A DNA stretch of 48,052 nt from an uncultured archaeon (GTDB taxonomy: Archaea > Thermoplasmatota > Penumbrarchaeia > JASLWR01). The DNA lies in assembly GCA_964342815.1 (NCBI GenBank), contig CAYFHS010000031.1, forward strand, positions 1 to 48,052, written 5' to 3'. The translations under genes and the position numbers were made by a program. Shown here piece by piece: positions 17,307 to 48,052 of this stretch. The notes beneath the pieces are model-generated. The model saw only the letters and a program-made list of their open reading frames with translations. It did no database searches and was not told where the DNA came from. Every line of letters starts with the position of its first letter. Position 1 is the stretch's first letter.

Positions 17307-20300
17307 TCATATCTTTTCAACAGGAGGTGGTATTGGTAGCGGATTGAGGTTTGTATCTATTCCATCTTGAGGTTCGTTTTCCTTCGGAAAGGGTACTTCG
17401 AGGTCGGGAGTGGATAAATCACCCGCTGGTGAATCTCCGGATGGAAATTCATCGAGCTCACTTGACGGACCACTCTCCGGCAATTCTGAGTAATCGAAGG
17501 ATTCATCGAGAACCTCCGTTTCTTCTTCTGGTTCACTTATCTCTATACCGTTATCGGATTGAGTTGGTTCCCTCCCTTCAGGGATTTCTTTATCTTGTGT
17601 TCTTTCCTCAATTTGTCGATCGTTTTCCTTTTTGGCATCATCTTTTTTGTCCCGATCCGGGAGTTCACTAAAATCGTTGGGGGAAAATACAAAAGATTTT
17701 CTGAGACGTTCTCCAAACGAAATTCCATCATCTACCGTCCTTCCTTCCATCAATCTCCTCCTTTGTTTCTCATAACCCGCCTTTAGATGGCGAGACCCAA
17801 TATAATCTAAAAGCCCGTGTTCCATGGCAAGTTCGATTTGGTGGTGATACCACCTGTCCAGTTCCTTTATCGATTTTACTTCATCTAATTGTTTATCGAA
17901 CTTGATAAATCTCTTTTTCCGCAGGATTATGCCCACCATCCATATCAATAGGACACCCCCTAATATCTTAAAGAAACTCGTTACAGTAGATAATGGTATC
18001 GTTTCACTAATTAGCCATCCCTTATCGGGATCGCTATCATCAGTATCGGAGTAGTCGAAGAAGAATAAAAAAGAATCGTCCTTTTCCAGACCATCACCAT
18101 CTGCATCCTCGTCATCGTTATCACCAACACCATCACCATCTGTATCTTTCCATTCGAAAGGGTCCAAAGGGAAAGCGTCATTACTGTCTTGATAACCGTC
18201 ATCATCATCATCATCATCTTCATTCAGTGTGGTGGTTTGTAATTTTTCTGGAAGAATATTCCATATGTCTTCCTTGGTTTTATACCATGAATGAAACTTG
18301 TCCGGGAGACCGTCATCGTCCGAATCTATTGATGCTGCTGCATCCAATGGGAACGCATCGATCACATCAGGATACTCATCATTATCGTCATCGGCATCTA
18401 TGTTATCCGGGAACTTGTCCTCGTCCCAATCAGCTGGAATTGAGGTATGAACAAGCGGATCGCTTCCGTAGTTGGCCTCCATCATATCTGAATAGCCATC
18501 ATTATCATCATCAAAATCCATCCAGGACTGGGAATTTATCGTATCCCCATTTGGCAAACTGTCGTTATCGGAATCCCTTGGTCTACTGCTGTTATCCTTT
18601 GGCTCTGTCCCGAGATATATCTCCCATTCATCCAAGAAATCATCATTATCATCATCAGAGTCTCCATTATTTCCCATACCGTCGAGATCGAAATCGGACC
18701 ATTCGTTGTTATCGTTGGAAAACCAATCACCGGTTTCGTTTGATGCAGTGAAATTCATACCATCGAGGGTAATAATTTTTCCTGGATGATTATCGCCATA
18801 ACCATCACCATCCGTGTCCTCCCATTGAGTCATATCGTTCGGGAATGCATCACGATTATCACCGACAGTGTCGTTGTCAAGGTCCGACCATTCACGCGGA
18901 TCGTCCGGAAACCGGTCCCCCGTTTCAAAAGATGCAACGTATTCCACCCCTCTGATCGTAATAATTGACCCCGGTGCATTATCACCAAAACCGTCCCCAT
19001 CCGAATCCATACATTGTGTTATATCCCCAGGGAGCGCATCACCGTTATCCCCCACTGTGTCATTATCAAGGTCCGCCCATTCCCGAGGGTCGTCCGGGAA
19101 CAGGTCACCGCTGGTAACATGGAAAATTCGATCTCGTACCTTTACTGTTGTCCAAGGGAGGTTATCCCCAAAACCATCACCATCCTTGTCCGCCCACTGT
19201 GCGTCATCTGTCGGAAATAGATCGTCAAATTTATCACCATGATAGTCACCATCAAGATCCATATGCTCAAGCGGGTCCCAGGGGATATGATCCACATTGT
19301 CACCAAACCCATCATCGTCAGAATCCATCCATTCAAGTTTATCTTCCGGGAATGCATCGATCAAATCAGGATATCCGTCTCCATCGGAATCCAACATGAA
19401 ATCACCGTTACCGCTGTTGATCAGGACAGTAATTGATGAGTCGATTGTATTCAAGGTAACGATATCCGGATCATCATCTCCGTTAACATATCCAAGATTG
19501 ATGGTTTGTGGTCCCTTCCCGACAGTATAATCAATTCTCGAACCAAACAAACTGCCCCCCTCGTTTCGGAGCACGGAAACGGTATTGTCACCATGATTGC
19601 CTGTTACGATATCCAAATCATAGTCACCGTCAATATCATCTATTGCGAGAGTTAGCGGACCATCGCCGACAGCGTAGCCGATCTTGGGTCCAAATCCACC
19701 GCTCCCATTATTTTTCAGAATTGCGATGGTGTTGTCCGCTGAATTCGCTGTTACAATGTCCAGGTCACCATCAATATCAATATCACCCAAAACCACCGAT
19801 CGAGGACTATCTCCTACCGGGTAATCAAAACGATCTTCGAATCCACCGCTCCCGTTATTAATCAAAACGGAGACACTATCGAGACCCGACTCTTCCTCAT
19901 TTGCAGTTACAATATCCAGGTCTCCGTCGCCGTTCACATCACCCAGATAAACGGAATATATCGATTTGAACAACTGATAATCGGTCCGGTCATCAGCATC
20001 CTTGCCGCCGGTAGCATCTTGTGAAAAATTACCCGTTCCGTCGTTTAACAACACCGTGACCTTTCCCTCGTATTGACGTTCACCATAGTTGCCAGTCACA
20101 ATATCGGCAAAATCATCACCGGACACATCTCCCAGGCATATGCTAATGGGCCATTCACCCACCTTGCAATCGGTCCGGTCTGAAAAACCACCTGAACCGT
20201 CATTTCTAAGAACAGAAACGTAATCCTGGTTATCACCAATTCGATTTGTTGTGACCACATCCCCATGGCCATCCTCATCTATGTCGCCAAGAGCGACTCC

Positions 20301-24847: not shown

Positions 24848-26272
24848 TCACTCTTTCTCGTATACATCAACCCTGAGCCTTTTTGAGGTCCAGATGCCCA
24901 GTAAGATCAATGCGGCAGGTAACAGCAAGACTGCAAAATTGGGATAGCCGGGACCACCAAGCAGCCAGTTCAGCAGACTACCACCCCAGTGATACGGAGA
25001 GATGGCAATGGGGACCGCGAATCGGTCTATTACATTATCCACATCCATACCACCGCCGGAAAGTGAATCTATCAATGCCAGTATCAGCCGGAAAAGCAGT
25101 CGGGTAAATATCAAAGAAAAAATTACGAAGAACCACGGAACCGATGTTGGCCTCAGAACAATCCTTTTACGGGCGTAGGTCAGCATGTTCGAAACCATAG
25201 AGCCGATCCCCACCGTCAGCCAACTAAGGGTCAGTGCAGTCATGAACACCAAAAAGAGCTCCCTGAAAGGTATGCCGATCCCCACCATTGTCAGAAAGAA
25301 AACGAGAAAGCATACGATGAATCCTATGATATAAGTATAGATCAGCTTTGCAATTGTGATCTCCAGAACTCCCACCGGATAGCAGACAAGTGTTCTTACC
25401 GTACCCTTCTTTATCTCGTGGTTGTAAGATGTGGCGAATATGGTTGGGACCAGAATGAGGGTCAGCAGAACGCAAAAGCCGAATATGAGATCGAGAAGAT
25501 TAAGAGGTACGCTGAAAGGTTCTCCCGGACTTATTGTTAGAGTGTTCGATTCAGTGCTTTTACCTGTTGAATCGCTTACGTTCAGTACAACACCAAATCC
25601 CTCTCCTTCCGCCTTCTCGAGAAAAATGTGTGTTGGATTCGGTTCATATGAGCCGTTCCCGTCACCGAAATCCCATGAATAATTATATGGACCGGTCCCA
25701 CCTACCACCGCACTGGTGAAGGCCACGCTCAGCGGTTTATTCCCATCGGTAACGTTGGCGCTTATCGCCACGCGTATTTCTTCGCTTCCCGGATCTCCCA
25801 CAACGATCCAAAGATTATTGGATTCGTAACTTTCACCACTGGAATCGGTCAACCTGAGACTGCATAAATATTCCCCGGGATTCAGAAAAGTATAGCTCGT
25901 ATTGGCCTTGTTCGAAACACCTCCGTCTCCAAAATTCCATTCATGCTCAAACGGAACGGGAATTCCAACAATTTCGCTTTTGAATGTGACGTTCAGGGGC
26001 GCAACGCCCTGCATGGTGTCTACCGAGATACGGACATAAAGATCATCAACCTCCGCAAGAAGTATACTTCCGGTCTAGGTGGGAACTCCGGTTTTCTCGA
26101 ACTGGTCCTTTGCCATCCCGAAAAATACCAGTCCGACGATGGCGATTATTATTGACAGGGAAATGATGAGTAAAAGGCCGTGCCTGCGTATCTGTTTCAT
26201 GTCCCGGGATACAATGGCCCAAATGAGCCTCCCTCGGGTGGGCACCGTTCCCCTTCCACCGTTACCACTCAA
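24848..26272 (-). pseudogene. ABC-2-type exporter permease with two PKD domains, interrupted by in-frame TAG at 26075-26077
   Basis: ORFs 26075-26272 and 24848-26014 share a frame, separated by TAG plus 20 sense codons. The N-piece has IWAIVSRDMKQ and TM1. The C-piece has 2x W(N/D)FGDG PKD domains, EIKKGTVRTLVCYPV and ABC-2 TMs. Confidence 0.75.
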
Positions 26273-35383: not shown

Positions 35384-37526
35384 ATGGAATACTCCTTAAG
35401 AACCAGTTTGTAAATTCCTTTATCAATTCTTTGTAATTTATGGTTCCAGACGTTTGATACTGGCGATCCAGCAACTCCCAGAACCTGGAATTTATCTTCT
35501 GGACCCATGCTGCCGAAAGCAATTCCCTGTTCTTTCCCTTTCTCGCATAATCCACTACTATCTTGCGGATGGCGGCTCTTGCGATGATGTTCTGCACCGC
35601 TTCCTCCATGCTCATTCCCCACGAAGCTGCAATTCGACCGATCACCTGGGAGCTGTAATGGAAAACGTCCGTTTCCTCCAGTTTGTCCTTCTTCTCGTCG
35701 AATTCCAGCAAATTATGAAAGGTTCCCTCGGTGGAAGCTTTATCCAGCTCTGCTATTTGCGTGGTGCGTCGTTTCATCTTGTGAGTACCTTTCGGCCTTA
35801 TGAAATTCGTTATTATTACAACATCCGTTGCGTTGAAGGACTTTGCCGGGATGCTCATATCATAGACTATCCTCTCGTAAACTGCTTCTGCAGAGTTCGA
35901 ATGGAAGGTTCCCAGTACGGCACTTCCCGCGGTACCGGCCCTCATGGCCTCGTAGAGGGTCTTGGCCTCTTCCCCTCTGACCTCACCGATCACGAGAGCG
36001 CTTTCACCCAGACGCAGCGCTATCTTCAATGCGTCGTTCGCACTCATCTCACCGAAACCCCCGAGAGATGATTGTATCTGCATTGGCTGTATCTTGTAAT
36101 CAAGTTCCTGAAGTTTCTCCACCGGCAGCTCCAGCGTATCTTCAATGGTTAGGATTCTCTGGCTTCGGGGAAACTCCAGAAGGCAAGCTCCCAGAAGAGA
36201 AGTCTTTCCCGCACCCCTGGACCCAGCAATGAGTATTGTGGCTTTCCCGTCTATGAGAAAAGAGATCAGACCTGCAGCCAAGGGAGTAAGAGAGCCAAGA
36301 TTGATGAGTCTCAGCAGGGTCCATGGTTCCGTGGAATGACGCCGGAGGGCAAATGCGGTCCCCGTGGGACTCAAGGGTCTACCAATGACCGAAACCCGAG
36401 TATTATGGGCACCTATACTGCACTCCAGCAGCGGCGTGGCTTCTGAGAAAGGTCTACCGCTTTCATACCGGAATCTGGACAAAAGGCTTTCGGCATCGGT
36501 TCTCGACAGTATAACGTTGCTTATGCACTTCCCCGACAACCTTGTGTCGATACCCCCCTCAAGGACCACATATATCTTATTATCCGAGGTTGGAGAATCA
36601 ATATATATATCCTGGATGTAATGATCTGCCAGCATGGTTTCGATAATACCCATACCGGCGGTAAACTTGGCAAGGATATTCGACAGCTTCCCAAGGTTCT
36701 TTAATTCATCATGCCTTGTATTGCCCAACGGGATACGGAATTTTTTCGCAAGCCTGTACATGTATTTCTGTCCAAACTTGATGACATATTCCCGAGCCCG
36801 GTCAGGTCGCGAAAGTTCCATTGAGTGGGGGTAGTGGGTCGTAAGCTCACGCCGTGTAAGCTCTACGAGTCTCATATGAGCCTCGGGTATGGCGTATTCG
36901 GCTGGAAAAACGTGATAAAGAGCCTCCACACCTTCCGGGAGCAGATACAGTGAGATGGTGGAATCCTCAACCATGTACTGCTTTATCAACCTGGCGTTCG
37001 GCGGTGCGTCGGGTATGACCCAGGATGATGAGAAACCAGGCCGCATCCTTGAGTTCTTCATGAGAATTTGGGAAAAACCTGCGCGAACCCTACCGGGACT
37101 CATTTCCCTTTCAAGATTATTCATCTTTACCTTGAGATTGGATATGGTGGGTGGTAATTTGTATTCCCGATCATAATTGGCACCCTCAGGAGGGGCGATG
37201 TCCGAAAGAGTGGTTTCCATACGGTCCGTAAGAGTGCCCTGATGCTGAGTAGGTTGGGCTCCTAGAGATCGTTTTGGATAATTGTTGGCAGAACTGGGGG
37301 CCGGGCTGCCCGGATATTTATGGACAGAGGGAAATGCCCGATCCACATGCCCGTGGCTATGGCGATTCACACCAAGCTTTCCCATAACTTTTTTGGAGGC
37401 AGGTTGCATATTGGATGTATCAGAGGGCGCTTTTGTGAATACTATCTTTGTTTCAGAGGTATATTTTCGCCCATGACCCTTTTTCGGCCGGATCACGTTT
37501 TCCTTGTCGTACTTCGCCATCTCCAC
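35376..37526 (-). CDS. Type II/IV secretion system ATPase (VirB11/TadA/CpaF family)
   Basis: Walker A GSRGAGKT, Asp box TIEDTLEL, Walker B VIGEVRG and His box GTFHSNS. The start may be ATG 37520. Confidence 0.92.
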   Translation of the reverse strand: MEMAKYDKENVIRPKKGHGRKYTSETKIVFTKAPSDTSNMQPASKKVMGKLGVNRHSHGHVDRAFPSVHKYPGSPAPSSANNYPKRSLGAQPTQHQGTLTDRMETTLSDIAPPEGANYDREYKLPPTISNLKVKMNNLEREMSPGRVRAGFSQILMKNSRMRPGFSSSWVIPDAPPNARLIKQYMVEDSTISLYLLPEGVEALYHVFPAEYAIPEAHMRLVELTRRELTTHYPHSMELSRPDRAREYVIKFGQKYMYRLAKKFRIPLGNTRHDELKNLGKLSNILAKFTAGMGIIETMLADHYIQDIYIDSPTSDNKIYVVLEGGIDTRLSGKCISNVILSRTDAESLLSRFRYESGRPFSEATPLLECSIGAHNTRVSVIGRPLSPTGTAFALRRHSTEPWTLLRLINLGSLTPLAAGLISFLIDGKATILIAGSRGAGKTSLLGACLLEFPRSQRILTIEDTLELPVEKLQELDYKIQPMQIQSSLGGFGEMSANDALKIALRLGESALVIGEVRGEEAKTLYEAMRAGTAGSAVLGTFHSNSAEAVYERIVYDMSIPAKSFNATDVVIITNFIRPKGTHKMKRRTTQIAELDKASTEGTFHNLLEFDEKKDKLEETDVFHYSSQVIGRIAASWGMSMEEAVQNIIARAAIRKIVVDYARKGKNRELLSAAWVQKINSRFWELLDRQYQTSGTINYKELIKEFTNWFLRSIPYA

Positions 37527-37544
37527 TCCTCTATCAAATCAACA

Positions 37545-38372
37545 TCACGATCTCTTTCCACAATTCGTACATGTTTGCTGGCCGTTCTGTAGTGGAAATC
37601 CACAGGCCCGGCACTGCGCGGCCCCCTTTCCTCTCTGAAAACCTGATGCAGGTTGCTGGAATCCCATCAGAGTTGAAAGGTACTGGTCCAATACCTGTGG
37701 GGCGAATCCTCCTGGGTATTGTGACCTGTTGCCCTGAAGTGCCACGTTGAATGCATTGCTTGCAACGAAACCCGCAAGCTTTTCGTACTCGTCGAATATG
37801 TAATTGAGGTCCTCTGCTGTGGCATTGAGGCAATTTCCGCAATATTTGGTCTTCTTTTTAAATCCGGGAATCTTATTGGCTATGTTTCTCAGCAGTTCAT
37901 GGAATCGAACCACATCTCTCATTACCAGATGATGCATTTTAGGGTAAAGTTTGCCTGGATTGAGCACGCACTTGCTGCATGCTATCCTACGTCGTTCCTT
38001 TTCGCCCTTGGGGCCGAAATATTCCTTTACCGGATCGCGCAGAGACAGGTTCTCAATCTCGTTTGCTAGAACCGTGATCTTCCCAAGTAGAGTTATCGAG
38101 GTCCCGTAATACTGTTTTTCAATGTAATGGGATACAGTTATCTTCTTGGTATTATATTCCTTTGAAAACGATGATAAAAGGGGGCCGAGGCAATCTCCTT
38201 CCGGGGTGTGAGGACCGGGGCAACCTTTACATTTAAGGGTCATGGTTGCGACGTCCTCATCCGTACCCATTGTATACTCACAGGTAGCGGGTATACGATG
38301 CTTCTTACCTTTCGGGCTTTTCCGTGATGCCTTTGGCTTCGACCTTTTGAGATTTTTTTTCGTCGTACCCAT
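37545..38372 (-). CDS. Cys-rich hypothetical protein heading the pilus-like operon
   Basis: CKGC..C, CSKC, CGNC and a terminal CRAC..CTNC double zinc ribbon. ATG 38372 has an AGGT RBS-like site; the ORF track starts at 38393. Confidence 0.7.
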   Translation of the reverse strand: MGTTKKNLKRSKPKASRKSPKGKKHRIPATCEYTMGTDEDVATMTLKCKGCPGPHTPEGDCLGPLLSSFSKEYNTKKITVSHYIEKQYYGTSITLLGKITVLANEIENLSLRDPVKEYFGPKGEKERRRIACSKCVLNPGKLYPKMHHLVMRDVVRFHELLRNIANKIPGFKKKTKYCGNCLNATAEDLNYIFDEYEKLAGFVASNAFNVALQGNRSQYPGGFAPQVLDQYLSTLMGFQQPASGFQRGKGAAQCRACGFPLQNGQQTCTNCGKRS

Positions 38373-38590
38373 TTTGAGACCTGCCGACACCAATCATAAC
38401 CTGAATATTTAACACTTTTGTTTTCCAAGTTTTGGGATAATATTGTCAATGTTTCGAATATCAACGATACTAACACCTCTTCCGACTTGTTCGTTCTACT
38501 CCAGTCGAATGGAATAATCATTGTCAAGTATATGAATATCGATTCCACTGGAAACACACAAAGATTTTCACCATAGTTAAATGCACCCAA

Positions 38591-38650
38591 AAAGTTATAT
38601 TATAGTTTAATAATAACTTTAAAGTAATTATAATGTAGCTACAATATAGT
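38591..38650 (+). promoter_or_regulatory. Promoter/operator region of the bzd operon with inverted repeats
   Basis: AAAGTTAT-N14-ATAACTTT (38591-38620), and a 24-bp imperfect palindrome at 38627-38650 centred on a perfect TGTAGCTACA, 11 nt before ATG 38662. Confidence 0.55.
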
Positions 38651-38661
38651 TTGTGAACTGC

Positions 38662-38805
38662 ATGGATAACGATACCCCTTCCAAGTTCGAAGTATACGGC
38701 CAGGAAATGATCGAAAAGACGGTCAGGCAGAGCGGCAACAGCGGTCGGATATACCTTCCGCCACACTGGATTGGTAAAAAGGTAAAGATAATCAGAGTCG
38801 ATTGA
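38662..38805 (+). CDS. 47-aa DUF2080-like small protein (AbrB-like beta-hairpin DNA-binding candidate); not in the ORF track
   Basis: Manual translation: MDNDTPSKFEVYGQEMIEKTVRQSGNSGRIYLPPHWIGKKVKIIRVD*. The EKxVxxxGNSGRxYLPxxWxGKxVKIIR pattern is characteristic of DUF2080. Confidence 0.8.
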   Translation: MDNDTPSKFEVYGQEMIEKTVRQSGNSGRIYLPPHWIGKKVKIIRVD

Positions 38806-38816
38806 GTGGTGAGCCA

Positions 38817-39263
38817 ATGACCATAATTGTTAGAGAAATGAGAAAGGCCGATATAGAAATAGCTGTCGATATTCATCGAAAGGTACTCCGAGAGGGCGGT
38901 ACGAGTGAACGGAAATACGATATCGGTGACCTCTTCACATCATTTCTGGATAAGACTCCTCACACCTGCTTTGTGGCCGAAAAGAACGGAAAGGCCGTAG
39001 GTTTCATCGTGGGCAGTATCAAGGAATGGGGGTTTGGTGTCGAGAAGGCCGGCTGGATAGAGATGGTGGAAGTGGATCCGAATTTTATGGGTGCAGGGGT
39101 GGGCAAGGAACTGGGGAGAGCTTTACTAAAGAATTATGATGTTGAGGGCATAAGAGAGGTCTACACCTCAGTGAGATGGGATAGCGGTGACCTCATCGAG
39201 TTCTTCAAATCCCTGGGATTCACAAAATCCAGCTTTATCAATCTGGTGTACAAGTCAAATTAG
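38817..39263 (+). CDS. GNAT-family acyltransferase-fold protein
   Basis: CFVAEKNGKAVGF, acyl-CoA-binding motif VDPNFMGAGVGKEL and FFKSLGF. A GGTGA RBS precedes ATG 38817. Confidence 0.88.
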   Translation: MTIIVREMRKADIEIAVDIHRKVLREGGTSERKYDIGDLFTSFLDKTPHTCFVAEKNGKAVGFIVGSIKEWGFGVEKAGWIEMVEVDPNFMGAGVGKELGRALLKNYDVEGIREVYTSVRWDSGDLIEFFKSLGFTKSSFINLVYKSN

Positions 39264-39295
39264 TTCGGAAGAAAACAGAAAAAAGAGTGATCGAG

Positions 39296-40444
39296 ATGAT
39301 AGAACAATTCAAGCAATGGTACGACAACCGACACGAATACGCTAAGGAGTGGAAGGAACGAACTGGCGGTAAGGTTGTAGGTTTTTTCTGCACCTATGCC
39401 CCGGAGGAGATATTTTATGCCTTCGACGTGCTGCCGGTGAGGGTGTTGGGCAGCCACGAGCCGCAGGACGTAACGGAACCACACATCTTCGCCATGTTCT
39501 GCCCCTTCTGCAGGGATGTACTGGCACAGGGACTGAAAGGTAGATACGACTATCTGGACGGGATCATGATAGCACAATCCTGCTTGCATCTCCGGCAGGC
39601 ATTCACCAGCTGGGAGATCCACAAGAACCCGGGCTGGAGCTATTTCCTTCCAATGCCAAACCACGTCCAAAGCAAGAGGGCCGTACCCTTCCTCAAAGAG
39701 GAGTACAAGCTGCTTATCGAAAAGCTGGAGGAACTCACAGGTAAGAAGATAACCGACGATGATCTACGGAGAGGCATAAAGATAATGAACGACGTCCGCA
39801 GGGTGATGAAGGAGATATACGAGTTCAGGAAGGACGTAAATCCTCCTATAACCGGCACCGAGGCGATGTATATGACCTGCGCCCAGTTCTTCACCGATGC
39901 CAGGGATTTCTTGAAGGTGGCCGAGAAGGTAAAAGAAGAACTCACAACCAGAAAACTGGACCGCGATCCGGGTCAGAGAATCATGCTTGTGGGAAGTGAG
40001 AACGACGATATTGAATATATCGAAATGATCGAGACCCTGGGCGAGAGGGAATCCGTGGGCTGTACCGTGGTTGTTGAGGATCACTGCACCACGACCAGGT
40101 ACTTCTGGGACCTTGTTGATGAGTCCATAGAGGATCCCCTTGAAGCAATAGCCGCGAGATATGTGAACCGTACCGCTTGCCCCTCGAAGGACTGGCCTCA
40201 GCGTACCAGGCTCAAACGCATACTGGAGCTGGCTAAGGATTTCGACGTGGCCGGGGCCATCGTGCTGCAGCAGAAGTTCTGCGATCCACACGAGGCAGAT
40301 ATACCCTTCATCAGGAAGTTCCTGGATGAGCACGGGATCCCCACATATTTCCTGGAGTTCGACGTGACTGTACCCTCGGGTCCCTTCGCAATCAGGACAG
40401 AGGCGTTCCTGGAAACGCTGGAGATGGAGGATGATCTGTTTTAG
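39296..40444 (+). CDS. bzdN: Benzoyl-CoA reductase, bzd-type, subunit N
   Basis: MIEQFKQWYDNRHEYAKEWKERTGGKV..CTY.PEE and HEPQDVTEPHIFAMFCPFCRD match BzdN as I recall it; HAD/BCR family fold. Confidence 0.88.
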   Translation: MIEQFKQWYDNRHEYAKEWKERTGGKVVGFFCTYAPEEIFYAFDVLPVRVLGSHEPQDVTEPHIFAMFCPFCRDVLAQGLKGRYDYLDGIMIAQSCLHLRQAFTSWEIHKNPGWSYFLPMPNHVQSKRAVPFLKEEYKLLIEKLEELTGKKITDDDLRRGIKIMNDVRRVMKEIYEFRKDVNPPITGTEAMYMTCAQFFTDARDFLKVAEKVKEELTTRKLDRDPGQRIMLVGSENDDIEYIEMIETLGERESVGCTVVVEDHCTTTRYFWDLVDESIEDPLEAIAARYVNRTACPSKDWPQRTRLKRILELAKDFDVAGAIVLQQKFCDPHEADIPFIRKFLDEHGIPTYFLEFDVTVPSGPFAIRTEAFLETLEMEDDLF

Positions 40445-40457
40445 GAGGTGATGAAAT

Positions 40458-41777
40458 ATGGCTAAATATCCAACTGAACCCTTAAAATGCTGGGGCAAGG
40501 CAAAAGAGCTGAGACAGGAATGGTACAGGGAATTCGATCTGGCACATGAGAAAGGGGGCCTAAGAGTAATGGGAAGCGCTTGGGCCTTCGACGCTGTGCC
40601 TCTGGGACTGGGGCGCGATGTCCGATGGATAACAGGAGAGCCCTATGGGGCTTCATGCGCCTTCAACAAGCCCCTTTCAGCCAAGTTCCTGTCAGCCGCC
40701 GAAAGATTCGGTTTTGCACGCGACCTATGTGCATATATGAGGAATTACTGGGGCTCCATATTATGTGACGAATATGCATTCGGAGGCGAGTTCCCCAAAG
40801 CGGACTTCGCTTTTTCCCAGCACATATGCTGCTCCCACGCAAAATGGTACCAGAACGCATGCGAGCTCGAGGGAGGGAATGTTCCCTTCTACGGTATCGA
40901 TGTGGGGTCTGGGCCCTGTCCGCCATTCGCTCCGAAGATGTATAAGCACAGAGTGAAATACGTGGCGGACCAGCTTCTGGATTCTATAGACTGGATGGAA
41001 GAGGTCACCGGTAGGGAATACAATGATGAACTGTTCTTCGAGGCGGCCTGGAACGATATCAGGTCCACGCATACGTGGGCCAAGATATGCATGCTCAACC
41101 GGGCGATACCCGCCCCCCTGGACGAGAAGACAATATATTCTCTGTACGTCTTCGGTACCCTCCAGAAATCCAACGACAAGTTTGCTGATTTCCTCGAGAA
41201 TGATCTCCTACCGGAGGTACAGGAACGGGTTGACCGGGGAATCGCCGCAGTGCCTAACGAAAAGGCCAGGATCATGACGGATACCCAGCCCCCATGGGGA
41301 TTTCTCAGTATCTATCGGTACCTGGAGAAATGGGGAGTCGTCTCCATCGGATCTCTGTATACCTTTGGTCTCGAGGGAATGTGGCTATATGATAAAGAGA
41401 ATAATGATCTGAGACCAAGGCCAATGCCCGAGAAAAAACCGGAGACCAGGGAGGAGGCCTGCATGATGCTGGCCGACTGGCACCTTACAAAGCCTGAGTA
41501 TCAACACTACTACAGCCCCGAGTACAAAACAGTGATGATGGATGCCATTGCGAAGAAGTGGAGCGTCGATGCCATTGTCCTCCATTACAACCGGGGCTGT
41601 GAAGGCCTTTCTGTCGGTATCGCCGAGAACAGGCTGGGACTCTTGAAGCGGGGGCATAAAGTATTGACCTACGAGGGGAACATGGGCGACGAGCGAGAGT
41701 TCGACAAGGAAGGCGTCGAGAAGAGGTTCGATATTTTCATGGAAGGCATGGGCCTGACCAAGGTAGAGGAGGACTGA
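40458..41777 (+). CDS. bzdO: Benzoyl-CoA reductase, bzd-type, subunit O
   Basis: KYPTEPLKCWGKAKELR, GFARDLCAYMRNYWG, HICCSHAKWYQ and HYNRGCEG; strong RBS AGGAGGTGA. Confidence 0.9.
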   Translation: MAKYPTEPLKCWGKAKELRQEWYREFDLAHEKGGLRVMGSAWAFDAVPLGLGRDVRWITGEPYGASCAFNKPLSAKFLSAAERFGFARDLCAYMRNYWGSILCDEYAFGGEFPKADFAFSQHICCSHAKWYQNACELEGGNVPFYGIDVGSGPCPPFAPKMYKHRVKYVADQLLDSIDWMEEVTGREYNDELFFEAAWNDIRSTHTWAKICMLNRAIPAPLDEKTIYSLYVFGTLQKSNDKFADFLENDLLPEVQERVDRGIAAVPNEKARIMTDTQPPWGFLSIYRYLEKWGVVSIGSLYTFGLEGMWLYDKENNDLRPRPMPEKKPETREEACMMLADWHLTKPEYQHYYSPEYKTVMMDAIAKKWSVDAIVLHYNRGCEGLSVGIAENRLGLLKRGHKVLTYEGNMGDEREFDKEGVEKRFDIFMEGMGLTKVEED

Positions 41778-41783
41778 GGTACA

Positions 41784-42557
41784 ATGAAAGTAGCAGGAAT
41801 AGATTGTGGTGCAAAGAACACTAAAACAGTGATCATGAAGGACAAAGAGATACTGGGAAAGGGAATCGCCATGACCGGTTTCGACCAGTCGGCGGCTGTG
41901 GAACAGTCTCTCCAGGAGGCATTGGAAGATGCCGGTATCAGTCGAGACGAGCTTGAGGGTATCGGCGGCACAGGGGCCGGAATGGACGATATTAAGATTG
42001 CAAACGTCAAGGTGAACGAGATCAAGTCCATGGCCAGGGCCGCGAACTTCTTCTTTCCGGATGCAAGAACAGTTACGGATGTGGGAGCCGAGATGGGACG
42101 GGCAGCCAAGATTGATGAAAAGGGAAACATCGTGGACTTTGCCATTAACGAGAAATGCGCGGCAGGTGCCGGGGCATTCATAGAGGCAATGGCCCGCGCC
42201 CTGGAGTCGGACGTTACAGAAATGGGCCCTATGGCAAACACATCCGACAAGGCCATAGCGATGAACGCACAGTGTGCTATCTTTGCTGAATCGGAGGTGG
42301 TCGGTCTCATCCATGACAAGATGAAGAAAGAGGATATCAGCAGGGCCATACACGATGCCATGGCCTCAAGGATCGTCTCCATGATCCGCAAGATAGGTGT
42401 CAACAAGGATATAGCAATGATTGGGGGCGTGGGACTGAATCCGGGATTTGTGGAATCCATGAGACGTGAACTGAATGTTGAAAGAATCTATGTTCCAGTG
42501 GATCCCGCTTACAGCGCCGCTGTTGGAGCTGCTCTGGTAACCATGGAGGAGGGTTGA
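41784..42557 (+). CDS. bzdP: Benzoyl-CoA reductase, bzd-type, subunit P (ASKHA ATPase electron-activation module)
   Basis: GIDCG, DVGAE, NEKCAAGAGAF and QCAIFAESE; the shorter of the two activator paralogs. Confidence 0.85.
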   Translation: MKVAGIDCGAKNTKTVIMKDKEILGKGIAMTGFDQSAAVEQSLQEALEDAGISRDELEGIGGTGAGMDDIKIANVKVNEIKSMARAANFFFPDARTVTDVGAEMGRAAKIDEKGNIVDFAINEKCAAGAGAFIEAMARALESDVTEMGPMANTSDKAIAMNAQCAIFAESEVVGLIHDKMKKEDISRAIHDAMASRIVSMIRKIGVNKDIAMIGGVGLNPGFVESMRRELNVERIYVPVDPAYSAAVGAALVTMEEG

Positions 42558-42558
42558 A

Positions 42559-43449
42559 ATGACAGACGAAAAGAAAAAAGAGGAATTCTGGCGTTGGACC
42601 GAGAGCAACTGGAAGGACCCTGACATGAACTGGGAGGAAGCAAAAATAATCACTGCTGGAATCGACGTGGGATCGGTCAGCTCCCAGGCCGTCATAGTCG
42701 TCGACGGAAAGATATTTGCCTATGGAAACATGAGGACAGGCTCGGACAGTCCTGAGAGTGCTCGGAACGCACTTAACTATGCTCTCGAAGTTACCAACAT
42801 GCCGGAAGACCGTATCGATTATTGCATTGGCACGGGGTACGGCAGGGTAAACGTCCCCATGGCCGATAGATCAATAACGGAGATCGCCTGTCATGCGCGT
42901 GGTGCGAATTTCATCTACGGCCCTGAGGTCAGAACCGTTCTGGATGTAGGCGGGCAGGACTGCAAGGCCATCCGCTGCGATGGGAAAGGAAAGGTTCAGA
43001 ACTTTCTAATGAACGATAAATGTGCCGCCGGTACCGGAAGGGGAATGGAGGTCTTCGCAGACCTACTTTCGGTCCCTATCACTCAGGTGGGCGAAAGGTC
43101 TTTCGAGATAGATAAGGAACCAACGCCTGTCAGCAGTACCTGTGTTGTATATGCCAAGACCGAGGCCACCGGATTGCTGAGATCGGGATGGAAGGTGAAC
43201 GAGGTATTGGCAGCCTACTGCGCAGCCATGGGTGAGCGGATCTACTCCCTTATCGAGAGGATCGGAGTGGAGGAAAGATTCGCCATCACCGGTGGATTGG
43301 CCAAGAACAAGGGTGTGATTAACCGGCTCATGAAGATCATGGACATCGTGCCTATGGAGACAAAGTGGGACACCCAAATAGCCGGAGCCGCCGGGGCCGC
43401 TCTCTTCGGCAATACATTGGTGGAAAGGGGAAAAGGACGTAAAAAATAG
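42559..43449 (+). CDS. bzdQ: Benzoyl-CoA reductase, bzd-type, subunit Q (ASKHA ATPase electron-activation module)
   Basis: N-terminal EFWRWTESNW extension, GIDVGSVSSQA, TGYGRVNVP, EIACHARGA, DVGGQDCK and NDKCAAGTGRG. Confidence 0.92.
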   Translation: MTDEKKKEEFWRWTESNWKDPDMNWEEAKIITAGIDVGSVSSQAVIVVDGKIFAYGNMRTGSDSPESARNALNYALEVTNMPEDRIDYCIGTGYGRVNVPMADRSITEIACHARGANFIYGPEVRTVLDVGGQDCKAIRCDGKGKVQNFLMNDKCAAGTGRGMEVFADLLSVPITQVGERSFEIDKEPTPVSSTCVVYAKTEATGLLRSGWKVNEVLAAYCAAMGERIYSLIERIGVEERFAITGGLAKNKGVINRLMKIMDIVPMETKWDTQIAGAAGAALFGNTLVERGKGRKK

Positions 43450-43460
43450 GAGTGAATACC

Positions 43461-43742
43461 ATGATAGCTAATTACGGATATAAAGATGGGTCCGGAGAGT
43501 ACTTCATCACCATCGATACCGATAAATGTACGGGGTGCGAGGCCTGCGTGAAAGCATGTCCATATGGCGTTATGGGTGTAGGCGAGGATGAGAACGATCC
43601 GATGTCGGACGATCTCGTTGCATTCGTTACCGATACGGAACGTAAAAAGATAAAATATACTTGCGGACCATGCAAGGGAGAGGGGAAGATAGAGCCTTGC
43701 ATCGCAGCCTGTGAACCTGGGGTCATAAGCCATTCATGGTAG
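43461..43742 (+). CDS. bzdM: BzdM-type 2x[4Fe-4S] ferredoxin
   Basis: MIANYGYKDGSGEYFITIDTDKCTGCEACVKACP plus a second CxxC-x8-CxxxC motif; directly after bzdQ. Confidence 0.88.
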   Translation: MIANYGYKDGSGEYFITIDTDKCTGCEACVKACPYGVMGVGEDENDPMSDDLVAFVTDTERKKIKYTCGPCKGEGKIEPCIAACEPGVISHSW

Positions 43743-43967
43743 TTGTTCCCTGATTATCTAGAAGACAGCCGGAGATGAAAAATCGAGGTTTTTAGGAACC
43801 TCATGATTTCCTGAAGACGGGCTGGACAATCATCCATCAGCAGGATAAAATCCACCGATTTCTGCGGGTGATTCATACCGGGCAATGCAAGTGTCCAACA
43901 GCGTGGGCTTAGAGTCCTATTTGGAGATATATTTATTTCACCAGCCATAATGCATCGAGGTCACAGC

Positions 43968-46511
43968 ATGGAATTATCAATAAATATAGATGACAAGGAT
44001 ATCTCAGCCTTAGAAGGGGAGACCATCCTAAAAGCAGCGGACAGGGCAGGGATATACATACCCCGTCTCTGTTACAGGCCGGGCTTGCCTTCCTCCCATG
44101 AACTGCATCCAAAGGAGGAGGGAATCTACAGCCAAGGCCAGCGCATCATAAGCGACACTGACGACGCTTTCCAAGGGTGCAGGTTATGCATAGTGGAGAT
44201 TGAGGGGTTGGCTGGTGAGCATACTTCGTGCGATACCGAGGTCTTTGAGGGTATGGTTGTCCGGACTGGAACGCCGGGAATTCTCACCAAGCGGGAGGAG
44301 CATCTCGAAGAGATATTGAGGGATCATCCCCACGTATGTCTGACCTGCGCGCAGAAGGAGGGATGCTCCAGAACACAGTGCTCATCGAACGTTCCCGATG
44401 ATGAGAAATGCTGCGTACAGCTGGGCAACTGCGAGCTTGAGAAGGTGGCATATTATGTGGGTATCAGTGATAGTACGCCCAAGTACATACCAAAACACCT
44501 ACCGTTGGACGATTTTGAATCTCTTATAGCACGGGATTACAACTACTGTATCGGCTGTCTCCGCTGCGTTCGGGCCTGCACAGAGGTATCCGGAGCCGAT
44601 GTTCTGGGTTTCGTTCATAGTGACGGAAAAGTGCTGGTTGGGCCCTGGAAGGCTTCTGGTTTTTCCGAATCCGATTGCCGTTTCTGCGGAGTCTGTGTAG
44701 AGGTCTGTCCCACTGGGGCTTTGCTCGATAAAGACCTGAAATCCGGGGAGAAGCATTCTGTGCTCGTCCCCTGCAGGAACAATTGTCCGGCGGAAGTTGA
44801 CGTGCCCCGTTACATCGAATATATCATGTTAGGCATGTATGGAAAGGCCGCTGCGGTGGTCAGGGAAAAAGTACCATTCCCGGGTGTACTGGGGCGGGTA
44901 TGCTTTCACCCCTGCGAGGAAGAATGTCGGCGAGGCAATCTTAATGAATCCGTATCCATTTGCTCGCTGAAGCGCTTCTGTGCGGATGAAGACACTGGGG
45001 TGTGGAAGGAAGCGGCTGCGGCCAATGCTACCGAACGTGAGAAAACCGGAAAGAAGGTGGCTGTGGTGGGAGGTGGACCTGCGGGACTCACCGCTTCGTA
45101 TTACCTTGCCAGGAAAGGACATGATGTGACCCTTTTCGAGGCCGAGGAAGTTCTCGGCGGCATGATGGCGCTGGGCATCCCCAAATACCGATTACCAGAT
45201 AACGTACTTCGACAGGAGAATGAAGAGATACTTGCCGAGGGGATCAAGGTGAGGCTCGGCACCAGGGTGGGAGATGATATTTCACTGTCTGAGTTAAAAA
45301 ATAAAAACGATGCAGTATTTCTGGCCGTAGGTGCACCCCAGAGCCGGAAGCTGGAAATTGAAGGCAATGAGCTACACGGCGTGCAATGGGGTATAGATTT
45401 CCTGAGGGCGGTCAATCTCGGTGAGGACGTAAATATTGATAAAAACGTGCTGGTCATCGGTGGTGGTAACGTTGCAATCGATGTGGCCATGACCGCCAGA
45501 AGGATGGGGGCCGAGAACGTCCGGATCGCGTGTCTCGAAAAGCGCAAAGAAATGCCCGCCTTTCCATGGGAGATCGAGGAGGCTGTCGATGAGGGTATAG
45601 ACATCCGATGCTCCTGGGGACCGAAAAAAATAATCGGCTCGGGGCAAAAAGTGTCTGCGGTGGAGATGAAACGGTGCACGTCGGTCTTCGACGACAATGG
45701 AAAATTTTCCCCTAGCTATGATGAGAACGAGATTACGACAATAGATGCAGATACGGTAATAATCGCCATTGGCCAGCAGTCGGATCTGGCTTTTATCTCG
45801 GATAATCCCGAAATTCGGGCAGTTCGGGGCTGCATACGGGTTTCCGAGAACTCGCTTGAAGCGGCTCATGGAGTATTTGCCGGAGGCGATATTGTAACCA
45901 TACCTGGGACGGTCATCGACGCCATCGCTGCCGGTAGAAAGGCGGCTTCCTCAATAGACCGCCACCTGGGCGGTGACGGCAATATAGACGAAATGTTGTG
46001 TGTTGATGACGACATAGAAATCTTCCAAAAAATGGATGTTCGGGAGAACTTTGCGAAGCTGGGACGGACAACTATGCCTATAATGGATGCTGAAGATAGA
46101 AAAGGCTTCGAAGAATTTTATCTCGGATTCGATGAGGCGGGTGCCCTGGGCGAGGCCGGGAGATGTTTAAGATGCGAGCTTCGGTTCCGCCTTCCTCCGG
46201 TGCTCCTCCCGCCCGAGAGCCTCCTTGCCCTCACCGAGGAGAACATCATTGGGCTGCCGGACGGTATCGAGGGTGTATACCAGCTTCTCGACGAGGACAA
46301 GAAGATTTTGGCTATCGTCGGGACATCCGATATAAAGGGAGACCTGCTGGACCGGCTCAGGTCAGTTGAGAAAACGAAATTTTTTAAATACGACGAGGAC
46401 CGGATGTACAGCAAGCGCGAGAGCGAACTTATGCAGGTCTATCTCCAGAAACATGGGACTATGCCGCCGGGGGACGGTGGTGGTGACGACGATCTCGACG
46501 ACCTGTTCTAG
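43968..46511 (+). CDS. bzdV: BzdV-like NAD(P)H:ferredoxin oxidoreductase (2Fe-2S, 4Fe-4S clusters, GltD-like flavin module)
   Basis: N-terminal IPRLC...CRLC..C, HPHVCLTC, 2x CxxCxxCxxxC, GRVCFHPCEEECRR, FAD motif GGGPAG, NAD(P) motif GGGNVA, and a C-terminal EGVYQL...ESEL extension. A GAGGT RBS precedes ATG 43968. Confidence 0.8.
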   Translation: MELSINIDDKDISALEGETILKAADRAGIYIPRLCYRPGLPSSHELHPKEEGIYSQGQRIISDTDDAFQGCRLCIVEIEGLAGEHTSCDTEVFEGMVVRTGTPGILTKREEHLEEILRDHPHVCLTCAQKEGCSRTQCSSNVPDDEKCCVQLGNCELEKVAYYVGISDSTPKYIPKHLPLDDFESLIARDYNYCIGCLRCVRACTEVSGADVLGFVHSDGKVLVGPWKASGFSESDCRFCGVCVEVCPTGALLDKDLKSGEKHSVLVPCRNNCPAEVDVPRYIEYIMLGMYGKAAAVVREKVPFPGVLGRVCFHPCEEECRRGNLNESVSICSLKRFCADEDTGVWKEAAAANATEREKTGKKVAVVGGGPAGLTASYYLARKGHDVTLFEAEEVLGGMMALGIPKYRLPDNVLRQENEEILAEGIKVRLGTRVGDDISLSELKNKNDAVFLAVGAPQSRKLEIEGNELHGVQWGIDFLRAVNLGEDVNIDKNVLVIGGGNVAIDVAMTARRMGAENVRIACLEKRKEMPAFPWEIEEAVDEGIDIRCSWGPKKIIGSGQKVSAVEMKRCTSVFDDNGKFSPSYDENEITTIDADTVIIAIGQQSDLAFISDNPEIRAVRGCIRVSENSLEAAHGVFAGGDIVTIPGTVIDAIAAGRKAASSIDRHLGGDGNIDEMLCVDDDIEIFQKMDVRENFAKLGRTTMPIMDAEDRKGFEEFYLGFDEAGALGEAGRCLRCELRFRLPPVLLPPESLLALTEENIIGLPDGIEGVYQLLDEDKKILAIVGTSDIKGDLLDRLRSVEKTKFFKYDEDRMYSKRESELMQVYLQKHGTMPPGDGGGDDDLDDLF

Positions 46512-46516
46512 GATGG

Positions 46517-46774
46517 ATGAATATGGCTGATGTGAGGGAGCTGCATGATGGGGTCCTGGAAAAGGAGGGCTGGACGAGACGGTCCATTCTCGATGATCCG
46601 AGATTAACGGAGGCAGCCGAAACGTATCGGGCTCTCGGTTTCGAAGTAAAATTGGTCCCGGTAAACGCAAATTTCATTTCAGGTTGTACCAGCTGCCTTG
46701 AGGGCGATATTGAGAAATACCGAATAGTGTACACAAAACCCGGAAAAGAAGCTGGAAAAGGTTTTTTGGATTGA
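46517..46774 (+). CDS. Small conserved-looking hypothetical protein with CxxC
   Basis: LEKEGWTRR...PRLTEAAETYRALGFEV...CTSC...VYTKP; starts 5 nt after bzdV. Confidence 0.7.
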   Translation: MNMADVRELHDGVLEKEGWTRRSILDDPRLTEAAETYRALGFEVKLVPVNANFISGCTSCLEGDIEKYRIVYTKPGKEAGKGFLD

Positions 46775-46796
46775 TTTTGACTGTGGGGTAGAAAAA

Positions 46797-47423
46797 ATGT
46801 TAATAAAAAAACTCGTAGTGGGGCCGATACAGGCCAACTGCTACATAGTTGGCGACGATGCCACGAAAAAAGGCGTTATTATTGACCCGGGTGACGAGGG
46901 AGACCGGATTATGGGTGAAGTGGAAAAACTGGGATTGGATATTGTCTATATAATCGCCACCCACGGCCATTTCGATCATTGCGCGGGGGTAGCCCGTATC
47001 AAAGTAAAAATACCCGACGTCCCATTCATTATTCACGAGGATGACCTTCCCTTCGTCAAGGATTCAAAAAACTCGGCGAGACGGTGGGGTATGGTAATTG
47101 ACCAGGTCCCCGACCCGGATCGATTTATGAAGATAGGTGAGAAGATCGAAGTGGGCGATATTACCTTTACGGTACTGCACACACCGGGTCATTCACAAGG
47201 GGGGATAAGTTTGTTATGTTCGGAGGGAATTTTCGTGGGGGATACTTTGTTCGAGGGTTCCATTGGAAGGACCGATTTCGAGGGGGGGTCGCTTGATATA
47301 CTTAAAAAATCCATCAAGGAGAAGCTGTATACTCTACCAGAGGATACAGTGGTTTTTACGGGGCACGGCCTTGAGACGACAATTGGGGTCGAAAAAAAGT
47401 TCAACATGTTCGTGAGGGGATAG
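46797..47423 (+). CDS. Metallo-beta-lactamase-fold hydrolase (glyoxalase II/YcbL-like)
   Basis: IIDPG, THGHFDH (HxHxDH), HTPGHS, GDTLF...GRTD and GHG. Confidence 0.92.
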   Translation: MLIKKLVVGPIQANCYIVGDDATKKGVIIDPGDEGDRIMGEVEKLGLDIVYIIATHGHFDHCAGVARIKVKIPDVPFIIHEDDLPFVKDSKNSARRWGMVIDQVPDPDRFMKIGEKIEVGDITFTVLHTPGHSQGGISLLCSEGIFVGDTLFEGSIGRTDFEGGSLDILKKSIKEKLYTLPEDTVVFTGHGLETTIGVEKKFNMFVRG

Positions 47424-47493
47424 ATGGATTCGGAGTTCGCTGCTTCATCTTACAGGTTCCCGATATTTTATCCTCTGAGGTTTTATTCATATC

Positions 47494-48052
47494 CTATACG
47501 GGTTGCCAAGCACTCTTACGATACAAATAACCAGTTTCTCCAAAAAAATATGTGACATCCGTAGCAAGGTGCTTTACATAAGTTAGTTTATTGTCAAGAT
47601 TCTCATAAACAATAAACGAATCAAATGGTGATAAAATAGGGAGCCGTGCATGGGATACAATTAGCTTTTCATTCGTACCATCAGAATCAGAGAGGTAAAT
47701 ATTAGTTTCGTTAATAGGGGCAGTATTTGAATCCTTTCTGGTATAAATAATATTCTTACCATCAGAAGAAAACTGAATAATATTATTGCGATAATTATCA
47801 TATAAGAGAGTTTTATTAGTTCCATCAGAATCTATTGTGTAAATACTGCGATCCCCATCAGTTCCCTCATAAGTGTATATGACACGTCCATCTGGAGTCC
47901 ATCCTTCTATCATACCATACCAATTACTTCCCATTTTATTTCCTTCAGTATCGATTACATAAGAGGTAGGGTTCAAAGCATTATAACCACCCCAAATACA
48001 ATACGCAAGTAATGTTCTATCAGGAGACAAATATGGTGGGAAATCAGTCGCA
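47494..48052 (-). CDS. TolB/WD40-like (PD40) beta-propeller protein, 5' end beyond the window
   Basis: Repeats LSPDRTLLAY, WTPDGRVIY, FSSDGKNIIY and IDSDGTN/SDSDGTN. The frame stays open to the window edge (..ATDFPPY-LSPD). Confidence 0.75.
   Translation of the reverse strand, partial: ATDFPPYLSPDRTLLAYCIWGGYNALNPTSYVIDTEGNKMGSNWYGMIEGWTPDGRVIYTYEGTDGDRSIYTIDSDGTNKTLLYDNYRNNIIQFSSDGKNIIYTRKDSNTAPINETNIYLSDSDGTNEKLIVSHARLPILSPFDSFIVYENLDNKLTYVKHLATDVTYFFGETGYLYRKSAWQPV

Follow-up and report, generated by a model that had tools for sequence, protein, structure and literature searches.

Can an uncultured archaeon take apart aromatic rings anaerobically, with enzymes of a kind familiar from bacteria? 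This question is raised by a 48,052-bp contig (C31), the whole of which was analysed and is called the window below. Towards its end lies a run of co-directional genes that an initial annotation had read as a complete bzd-type class I benzoyl-coenzyme A (CoA) reductase together with its electron supply. The six bzd open reading frames (ORFs) stand where they had been placed, although bzdN opens at 39287, and the start of 39296 given earlier is the ATG at its codon 4. Our results support the assignment of the core proteins to the Bzd-type class I benzoyl-CoA reductases. We favour an explanation in which a linked flavoprotein and ferredoxin would feed electrons to this reductase, enzymes encoded on other contigs would supply the remaining steps of the upper benzoyl-CoA pathway, and the operon probably came from a bacterium; taken as a whole, we give this explanation a probability of about 0.85.

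The identity of the reductase was assessed from protein families, structures and individual residues. The four core proteins carry HGD-D domains (BzdN and BzdO) or BcrAD_BadFG domains (BzdP and BzdQ), and three of them exceed the NCBIfam equivalog cut-offs for their namesakes: BzdO with TIGR03191 (score 543.4, cut-off 448.6), BzdQ with TIGR03192 (425.6, cut-off 380.2) and, by a narrow margin, BzdN with TIGR03190 (467.6, cut-off 453.8). No NCBIfam model matched BzdP, which was named from its position and paralogy. The closest solved chains to BzdO and BzdN are 8s02_A (527 bits, E = 3e-157) and 8s02_B (446 bits, E = 8e-133), respectively, and that to BzdQ is MbdQ (190 bits); among the solved relatives, the subunits of 3-methylbenzoyl-CoA reductase and those of 2-hydroxyisocaproyl-CoA dehydratase score much lower. 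The Thauera-type reductase BcrCBAD was considered and rejected, as TIGR02263 (BcrC; 117.6, cut-off 421), TIGR02259 (140.9, cut-off 578) and TIGR02261 (113.4, cut-off 313) all remained below their cut-offs; TIGR02260 had no match to BzdO, and models of double-cubane proteins scored far below theirs.

The entry 8S02 is the BzdNO structure of Aromatoleum sp. CIB, for which ligand and active-site residues have been described (PMC11971306). We carried these residues onto the window proteins through HMMER alignments to 8S02, with the BzdN mapping made by hand. In BzdN, all six cysteines of the double cubane are kept (Cys36, Cys73, Cys100, Cys263, Cys293 and Cys327 of CIB correspond to C35, C72, C99, C267, C298 and C332 of the window), as are the surrounding residues Arg53, Arg267, Arg290 and His330 (R52, R271, R295 and H335). 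In BzdO, the same holds for the three cluster cysteines (Cys95, Cys128 and Cys380; C91, C124 and C381), the acid/base pair Glu65/His131 (E61/H127), the ring-lining residues Trp46, Tyr97, Leu302 and Leu383 (W42, Y93, L305 and L384) and the thioester contacts Tyr97, Tyr298 and Gln274 (Y93, Y301 and Q277). Across 82 aligned homologues the listed BzdO positions are invariant, with the exception of Ser44 (S40 in the window), which is Gly in 51 of the 82. In both BzdP and BzdQ, which align with HadI and MbdQ, there are two cysteine motifs, one of them of the DKCAAGxG type; from the solved activator of 2-hydroxyglutaryl-CoA dehydratase (1HUX), we take these cysteines to be the ligands of a [4Fe-4S] cluster bridging the two proteins. 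Because the equivalog scores, the cysteines, the pocket residues and the presence of two distinct ATPases all fit, membership of the Bzd type, as initially proposed, is supported by every feature that can be tested on sequence.

The operon appears to be at home in an archaeal genome. The bin comprises 4.35 Mb in 116 contigs, with an estimated completeness of 88.9% and contamination of 3.2%, and has an archaeal small-subunit (16S) rRNA gene on contig C9. The contigs discussed here (C2, C7, C9, C31 and C33) are all near the mean tetranucleotide profile of the genome, and that of the window ranks 17th of 56. In another genome of the same genus (G001, submitted as 'Thermoplasmatota archaeon ETNP2_MAG_1'), the operon is found at a locus (L017) with the same flanks, namely orf689, a T2SSE-type ATPase gene and orf282 upstream (82–91% identity to the window) and orf85 (70%) and a metallo-beta-lactamase (MBL)-fold gene (92%) downstream. 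As this genome shows the operon between the same neighbours, we consider the operon to be resident in the archaeon. The same clade of operon is present in nine more archaeal bins, including a single-contig 3.58-Mb Thermoplasmata chromosome (CP070629.1, 'Thermoplasmata archaeon bin983 chromosome'; G012). Logan contigs from four other runs in four studies, for which no differences are listed, extend over both flanks as well as the operon at low and similar depth, some of them crossing the joints between the GNAT gene and bzdN and between the flavoprotein gene and orf85; over positions 36000–48052 these contigs cover about 230–700 nt of the stretch each at low depth, which is weak support for continuity, and the parts left uncovered are uninformative. 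A Thermoplasmatota host, which had been suggested from the letters alone, is supported by the archaeal rRNA gene and the shared flanks, with the placement taken from the submitters' titles of the matching records.

The window has no CoA ligase gene and no dch, had or oah gene, as had been noted, and whole-genome searches for them matched other contigs only. Side by side on contig C2 are genes for a Dch-like protein, Had and Oah, of which Had (464, cut-off 338.65) and Oah (566.5, cut-off 464.45) exceed their equivalog cut-offs, and contig C33 carries a gene of the benzoate-CoA ligase family with an intact ORF (651.7, cut-off 375.25). The Dch-like protein is 52–56% identical to the products of genes that adjoin Asgard bzd operons, beside bzdN. 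In the nearest bacterial clade, homologues of Had and Oah are encoded no more than 10 kb from bzd in two loci, of which L032 has a ligase homologue as well. Among five relatives checked, Oah accompanies BzdO in three (G001, G003 and G014). The upper benzoyl-CoA pathway, comprising ligase, Dch, Had and Oah, is therefore predicted for the same genome, and the ring-cleavage route on which the initial reading depended is represented by Had and Oah, which pass their cut-offs. As for the source of benzoyl-CoA, aromatic amino acids had been suggested in view of a peptide transporter nearby. This idea is supported in part. IorA is encoded in the genome; a search at 1e-20 for a phenylacetate-CoA ligase of the PaaK type (TIGR02155) found nothing in the genome, which is 88.9% complete, and the transporter was not confirmed, the transporter-type proteins seen in the window being an MFS_1 protein, an ABC ATPase and two PHO4 phosphate transporters.

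A second aromatic-looking cluster lies on contig C7 at 74000–93999 (L113). It encodes a fused gamma-alpha molybdenum hydroxylase of 943 aa that is nearest to the alpha subunit of 4-hydroxybenzoyl-CoA reductase (897.9, below the cut-off of 994.55), an XdhB-like FAD subunit, an AMP-forming CoA ligase and an ADP-forming acyl-CoA synthetase, together with a HadB-like protein of 424 aa and a single activase of 261 aa.

The two genes proposed for the electron supply, bzdM and a bzdV-like gene, fared differently: a ferredoxin and a large flavoprotein are present as predicted, and the likeness of the latter to BzdV comes from domain architecture and linkage only. The ferredoxin has eight cysteines in the motifs CxxCxxCxxxCP and CxxCx8CxxxCEP, suggesting two clusters, and the CxxCx8CxxxC spacing is one that we take to mark low-potential ferredoxins of the Allochromatium type, including that of the Thauera reductase. 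In 70 of 71 related loci, the gene next after bzdQ encodes a homologue of this ferredoxin; a flavoprotein homologue of about 840 aa is encoded no further than 5 kb from bzdQ in 46 of 53 loci, from bacteria as well as archaea. The Pfam domains of the flavoprotein are Fer2_4, a NuoG-type Fe-S domain, Fer4_20 and Pyr_redox_2, with a weak DUF7508 match in the C-terminal tail. Its N-terminal part is of the NuoG/HydA type, with a [2Fe-2S] domain, an HxxxCxxCx5C motif for a His/Cys-ligated [4Fe-4S] cluster and two CxxCxxCxxxC motifs; the part that follows is GltD/NfnB-like, and the motifs of the translation suggest two [4Fe-4S] clusters, an FAD site and an NAD(P)H site on a second Rossmann fold. Over residues 272–745, the closest solved chains include NfnB-type chains and chain C of 8oh5 (Stn), the latter with 359 bits over residues 273–745; the range of chain C that was matched is the GltD-like part of StnC (PMC10482914). 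An 847-aa Pseudomonadota cluster has a template-modelling score (TM) of 0.91 to the Atlas model of the window flavoprotein. None of the names given to its homologues in public sources is BzdV or any other Bzd name, and a tblastn search of a plasmid collection with BzdO, made in order to find a bzd cluster whose annotation names a BzdV, returned no match.

The electron-supply genes are not the same throughout the genus. In G001, three genes take the place of the single flavoprotein gene (L017, 13342–18025) between the same ferredoxin and orf85–MBL genes, encoding a NuoE-like protein of 168 aa, a NuoF-like protein of 594 aa and a NuoG/GltD protein of 816 aa that is 38% identical to the window flavoprotein. 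By its gene content, this module has an StnABC-like layout of the bifurcating type. Because G001 and the window differ at the same site, the electron-supply module has evidently been swapped within one genus.

Read together, these genes suggest a route from benzoate to an opened ring, in which both the enzyme activity and the electron donor are predictions. A benzoate-CoA ligase (C33) would activate benzoate. NAD(P)H or another donor would reduce the FAD of the 847-aa flavoprotein, the Fe-S chain of which would pass electrons to the 96-aa two-cluster ferredoxin and from there to the [4Fe-4S] cluster shared by the ATPase subunits BzdP and BzdQ, where ATP hydrolysis would lower the potential of the electrons. 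These would accumulate in BzdN, on its [8Fe-9S] double cubane, before they move to the water-bearing [4Fe-4S] cluster of BzdO, allowing BzdO to convert benzoyl-CoA to cyclohexa-1,5-diene-1-carbonyl-CoA. The dienoyl-CoA would then be hydrated, oxidised and ring-opened by the Dch-like protein, Had and Oah (C2).

The phylogeny of BzdO bears on where this operon came from. In trees of 80–82 sequences, the ten Thermoplasmata BzdO rows, including that of the window, form one clade (SH-aLRT, the Shimodaira–Hasegawa-like approximate likelihood ratio test, 98–99). This clade is nested in a clade of 31 rows (support 100), the rest of which are bacterial and mostly from Desulfobacterota, and its sister group has four rows, assigned to Desulfobacterales or 'Deltaproteobacteria', with closed chromosomes as the source of two. 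An approximately unbiased (AU) test on 39 rows rejected a tree in which the 21 bacterial rows were held together (log-likelihood difference 23.6, p-AU 0.0022), for groups that were defined in view of the finished tree, and with the root assumed outside the 31-row clade. A second Thermoplasmata BzdO clade stands elsewhere, near the Asgard clade, and bzd therefore seems to have entered Thermoplasmatota at least twice; the window BzdO is 56–61% identical to both of these clades. Its distribution among relatives is patchy, with BzdO over the cut-off in 8 of 41 genomes (its own and 40 relatives) and in none of the 24 in the largest related family. The 7.2-kb operon segment has a GC content of 52.2% against 45.4% for the genome, above that of all 220 sampled windows of the same size; the GC richness first noticed at 40141–40200 (34 of 60) is exact. 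Because of the tree, the AU test and the base composition, a transfer from a bacterium to the archaeon is likely, in agreement with the earlier suggestion of an anaerobic bacterial source, and the donor group is fairly clear, namely Desulfobacterota, that is, bacteria of the sulfate-reducer type. With regard to the direction and number of transfers, we infer that a cassette of DUF2080, GNAT, bzdNOPQ, ferredoxin and flavoprotein genes was gained once by a Thermoplasmata ancestor from a Desulfobacterota-like bacterium and was then passed on by descent within a few families.

Several observations weigh against this explanation. Three contigs carry the pathway genes, in a bin with the completeness and contamination given above, so that binning, composition and co-occurrence in relatives are what places these genes in one genome. 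The Dch-like protein, with a score of 179.9, falls under its equivalog cut-off of 292.5; TIGR03189 is nevertheless its best match, and its gene is beside that of Had. In G010 and in the CP070629.1 chromosome, Oah had no match at E <= 1e-30 despite the full bzd operon, and the usual hydrolase for ring opening may be missing, or replaced by a variant, in some members of the clade. For the flavoprotein, 'BzdV-like' is a reasonable name by position and architecture, to which only the conserved linkage can be added, and its electron donor is uncertain because the step from NAD(P)H to ferredoxin is uphill and a single flavoprotein has no evident site for a second acceptor. On the side of its origin, in addition to the post hoc groups and assumed root of the AU test, some bacterial rows of the tree come from short contigs of possibly mis-binned bins, and the GC signal may partly reflect protein composition, because the clade spans three GTDB families yet stays GC-atypical. 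Finally, no RNA run is among the runs listed with this DNA.

The explanation set out above has to be weighed against others for the enzyme itself. The proteins share their superfamily, with its HGD-D and BcrAD_BadFG domains, with the 2-hydroxyacyl-CoA dehydratases and activators of amino-acid fermentation, and HadBC with its activator is among the solved relatives. The membership tests nonetheless rule out this reading, and we regard it as extremely improbable: the models for HadB (81.7, cut-off 750) and HadC (175.2, cut-off 700) fail where the bzd models are passed, BzdN keeps the six double-cubane cysteines that are lost in dehydratases (PMC11971306), there are two different ATPases here rather than one homodimeric activator, and a HadB-like protein accompanied by one activase is encoded apart from the operon, on C7. 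A class I aryl-CoA reductase acting on another substrate, such as 5,6,7,8-tetrahydro-2-naphthoyl-CoA or a methyl- or hydroxy-benzoyl-CoA, deserves more attention, given that the nearest non-archaeal relatives are Desulfobacterota and that substrate range cannot be read from a sequence alone. In N47, NaphS2 and TRIP_1, genes annotated as bzd-type have been assigned to tetrahydronaphthoyl-CoA reduction, with a ferredoxin following in N47 and an oxidoreductase in all three, called 'BzdV protein' in TRIP_1 (PMC6849830). We nevertheless consider such a substrate unlikely. The residues that line the benzoyl ring and contact the thioester in 8S02 are all identical in the window, leaving no room for a second ring; in addition to the bzd cut-offs that were passed, MbdO, the 3-methylbenzoyl-CoA reductase subunit, aligns with BzdO at only 41 bits against 527 for the CIB protein. 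The genome also encodes a benzoate-CoA ligase, along with Had and Oah, which act on the product of benzoyl-CoA reduction, and in the two bacterial loci mentioned above Had and Oah adjoin bzd.

A further alternative is that no archaeon owns the operon and that the contig is a chimera or mis-binned bacterial DNA. The raised GC content (52% against 45%), the bacterial affinity of the closest non-archaeal relatives and the contamination of the bin could be taken in this sense. In contrast, the same-genus genome has both the operon and its flanks at 70–92% identity, nine more archaeal bins carry the operon, one of them as a single-contig chromosome, the whole contig is near the mean tetranucleotide profile, and short contigs of four other runs cover flanks and operon and in part bridge the joints. 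A bacterial or chimeric contig is therefore very unlikely, and a benzoyl-CoA reductase operon resident in a Thermoplasmatota archaeon is the reading that we retain.

The operon is larger than was first described: the core genes had been recognized, whereas the DUF2080 ORF and the GNAT gene directly upstream and orf85 and the MBL-fold gene directly downstream had been missed. Ten genes on the + strand now lie between 38662 and 47423 (listed below). The stop of the DUF2080 gene overlaps the start of the GNAT gene by 4 nt, and 23 nt separate the latter from bzdN; the gaps from bzdN through bzdO, bzdP and bzdQ to the ferredoxin gene are 13, 6, 1 and 2 nt, with GGAGG-like motifs ahead of bzdO, bzdP and bzdQ. 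A gap of 225 nt then precedes the flavoprotein ORF. No ORF lies inside it, and therefore nothing occupies the place expected of bzdS, bzdT and bzdU, in line with the initial annotation. Gaps of 5 nt (flavoprotein gene to orf85) and 22 nt (orf85 to the MBL-fold gene) complete the unit. The flavoprotein ORF opens at 43950, and the public gene call starts at its M7 (43968). Within the 225-nt gap, the only long one in the operon, the AT-rich element ATATATTTATTT is found at 43929–43940, about 28 nt before the ATG at 43968. It favours the start that yields 847 aa and is a possible internal promoter, of the archaeal kind, from which the flavoprotein, orf85 and MBL-fold genes would be transcribed.

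Genes of the operon in the window, with predicted roles and supporting matches
Feature	Position	Strand	Evidence or remark
DUF2080 protein, 47 aa, first operon gene	38662..38805	+	PF09853, 24.1 bits (cut-off 21.5)
GNAT-family acetyltransferase, 153 aa	38802..39263	+	Acetyltransf_1, E = 1.6e-13; alternative ATG at 38817
BzdN, predicted electron-storing subunit with double-cubane [8Fe-9S] cluster	39287..40444	+	TIGR03190, HGD-D
BzdO, predicted catalytic subunit with [4Fe-4S]-OH2 cluster and benzoyl-CoA pocket	40458..41777	+	TIGR03191, HGD-D
BzdP, predicted ATPase subunit	41784..42557	+	BcrAD_BadFG, E = 9.3e-43; CoA_E_activ, 203.5 bits
BzdQ, predicted second ATPase subunit	42559..43449	+	TIGR03192, BcrAD_BadFG
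Ferredoxin, 96 aa, BzdM-like by position	43452..43742	+	Fer4 family matches
Fe-S flavoprotein, 847 aa, candidate ferredoxin reductase	43968..46511	+	Pfam, NCBIfam, motifs
orf85, small conserved protein	46517..46774	+	no Pfam or NCBIfam family
MBL-fold hydrolase, glyoxalase-II-like, possibly last gene of the unit	46797..47423	+	Lactamase_B, E = 2.4e-31

The accessory genes recur around related operons. The DUF2080 gene is single-copy in the genome, and copies that are 65–91% identical lie just upstream of GNAT–bzdN in Thermoplasmata, Desulfobacterota and some Asgard loci. No Bzd name occurs among the names of its homologues, and the database label 'transposase-associated' does not fit the bzd context; the protein might serve the reductase cassette in regulation, in assembly or as an additional subunit. 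A GNAT gene stands directly upstream of bzdN in 23 of the 60 related loci that have enough upstream DNA. The product of orf85 has a CxxC motif, and Atlas offers only families of hypothetical proteins for it; the gene comes immediately after that of the flavoprotein in the loci of Gemmatimonadota, Asgard archaea and G039 and in part of those of Thermoplasmata, and in one locus (L019) it lies about 1.5 kb further on. The MBL-fold gene occupies the same position in L017, and it comes after the operon in L019, L020 and L105 too. That the ferredoxin-recharging part is an exchangeable cassette and that DUF2080, GNAT and orf85 are undescribed partners of the reductase cassette is a combined proposal that we put forward tentatively and think somewhat improbable; if it were true, the module swap could reflect different ways to pay for an ATP-costly enzyme under energy limitation.

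The remainder of the window is of a different nature. On the - strand, 420–7253 encodes a type I restriction-modification system (HsdS, HsdM and HsdR), with a gene for a YhcG/DUF1016 PDDEXK nuclease between hsdS and hsdM. Two PKD-domain proteins of 1092 and 388 aa, which are likely to be surface proteins, and an ORF of 1503 aa are encoded at 7655–10933, 17307–21818 and 24848–26014, all on the - strand, and the two PHO4 phosphate transporter genes are in tandem at 11028–13764.

Among characterized systems, that of Aromatoleum (Azoarcus) sp. CIB offers the closest comparison for the reductase. It has the same subunits in the same order N-O-P-Q, followed by a ferredoxin, and further BzdNO structures of this strain are available (PDB 8S1T and 8S2R; PMC11971306). 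The window has its large Fe-S flavoprotein downstream, where CIB has BzdV, which has been described as a 'putative NADPH:ferredoxin oxidoreductase' (PMC5658619). In contrast to the window, CIB has bzdSTU between the ferredoxin gene and bzdV; likewise, none of the CIB genes bzdWXYZA is attached to the window operon, and the ligase and lower-pathway genes are on other contigs. The window also differs from CIB in its archaeal host and in having DUF2080 and GNAT genes upstream, where no bzdR-type regulator was seen. The operons of uncultured Desulfobacterota are the nearest non-archaeal relatives (BzdO 74–79% identical), as exemplified by the closed 'Deltaproteobacteria' chromosomes CP070660.1 and CP070704.1 and by Desulfobacterales and Desulfomonilaceae bins. 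They share the cassette GNAT-N-O-P-Q-ferredoxin-flavoprotein, often with DUF2080, whereas neither orf85 nor the MBL-fold gene was found there downstream of the flavoprotein gene.

For the flavoprotein, the instructive comparison is with StnC of the StnABC transhydrogenase of Sporomusa ovata (8OH5; PMC10482914) and with NfnB, both of which share with it a GltD/NfnB-like NADPH–FAD module containing two [4Fe-4S] clusters. In StnC, as in the window protein, this module is joined to Fe-S domains of the NuoG/HydA type. However, the window protein stands as a single protein without NuoE or NuoF partners, has an entire NuoG-type part ahead of the GltD part, and lacks the FdhF-like C-terminal domain of StnC, having the weak DUF7508 tail instead.

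Among archaea, the benzoyl-CoA reductase of Ferroglobus placidus is ATP-dependent; this organism belongs to another phylum and has another lifestyle, and its sequences lie outside the 80 nearest loci. It is a hyperthermophilic archaeon with a bacterial-type benzoyl-CoA pathway, as cited in PMC10570749. Closer cases have been published from bins of mesophilic anaerobes with the same class of enzyme, for which the ferredoxin, 'BzdV' and Dch/Had/Oah have been reported. They include class I reductase genes in Ca. Yaplasmales, which are Thermoplasmatota (PMC9239135), in Lokiarchaeota of the Costa Rica margin (bioRxiv 10.1101/763623), in Thermoplasmata (Dong et al. 2019, as cited in PMC8163825) and in Hermodarchaeota, where horizontal transfer from bacteria was proposed and a protein on the bzd-bearing contig was called BzdV (PMC8163825). 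The BzdO clade of the window is distinct from both the Asgard clade and the second Thermoplasmata clade. Furthermore, the published archaeal cases come from sediments, whereas the runs with the DNA of the window are labelled marine metagenome or seawater metagenome. Because of these labels and the 'ETNP' in the name of the relative, aromatic compounds may be used by this lineage in oxygen-poor sea water and not only in sediments, with the habitat read from run labels and names.

As operons of this kind have already been published for Thermoplasmatota and Asgard archaea, the case described here is well supported but ordinary. It is modestly new in the conserved DUF2080 gene, the recurring orf85, the module swap within a genus and the marine or seawater source of the DNA, and further study might be worthwhile only for the module swap and the small conserved accessory genes. 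It is also unusually clean, in that the active site can be checked against a 1.4-Å structure, pathway genes are found in the genome and a genome of the same genus confirms the locus. While leaving current understanding unchanged, it thus adds one well-documented case to the mesophilic uncultured archaea that appear to have the bacterial-type, ATP-dependent route of anaerobic aromatic-ring breakdown.

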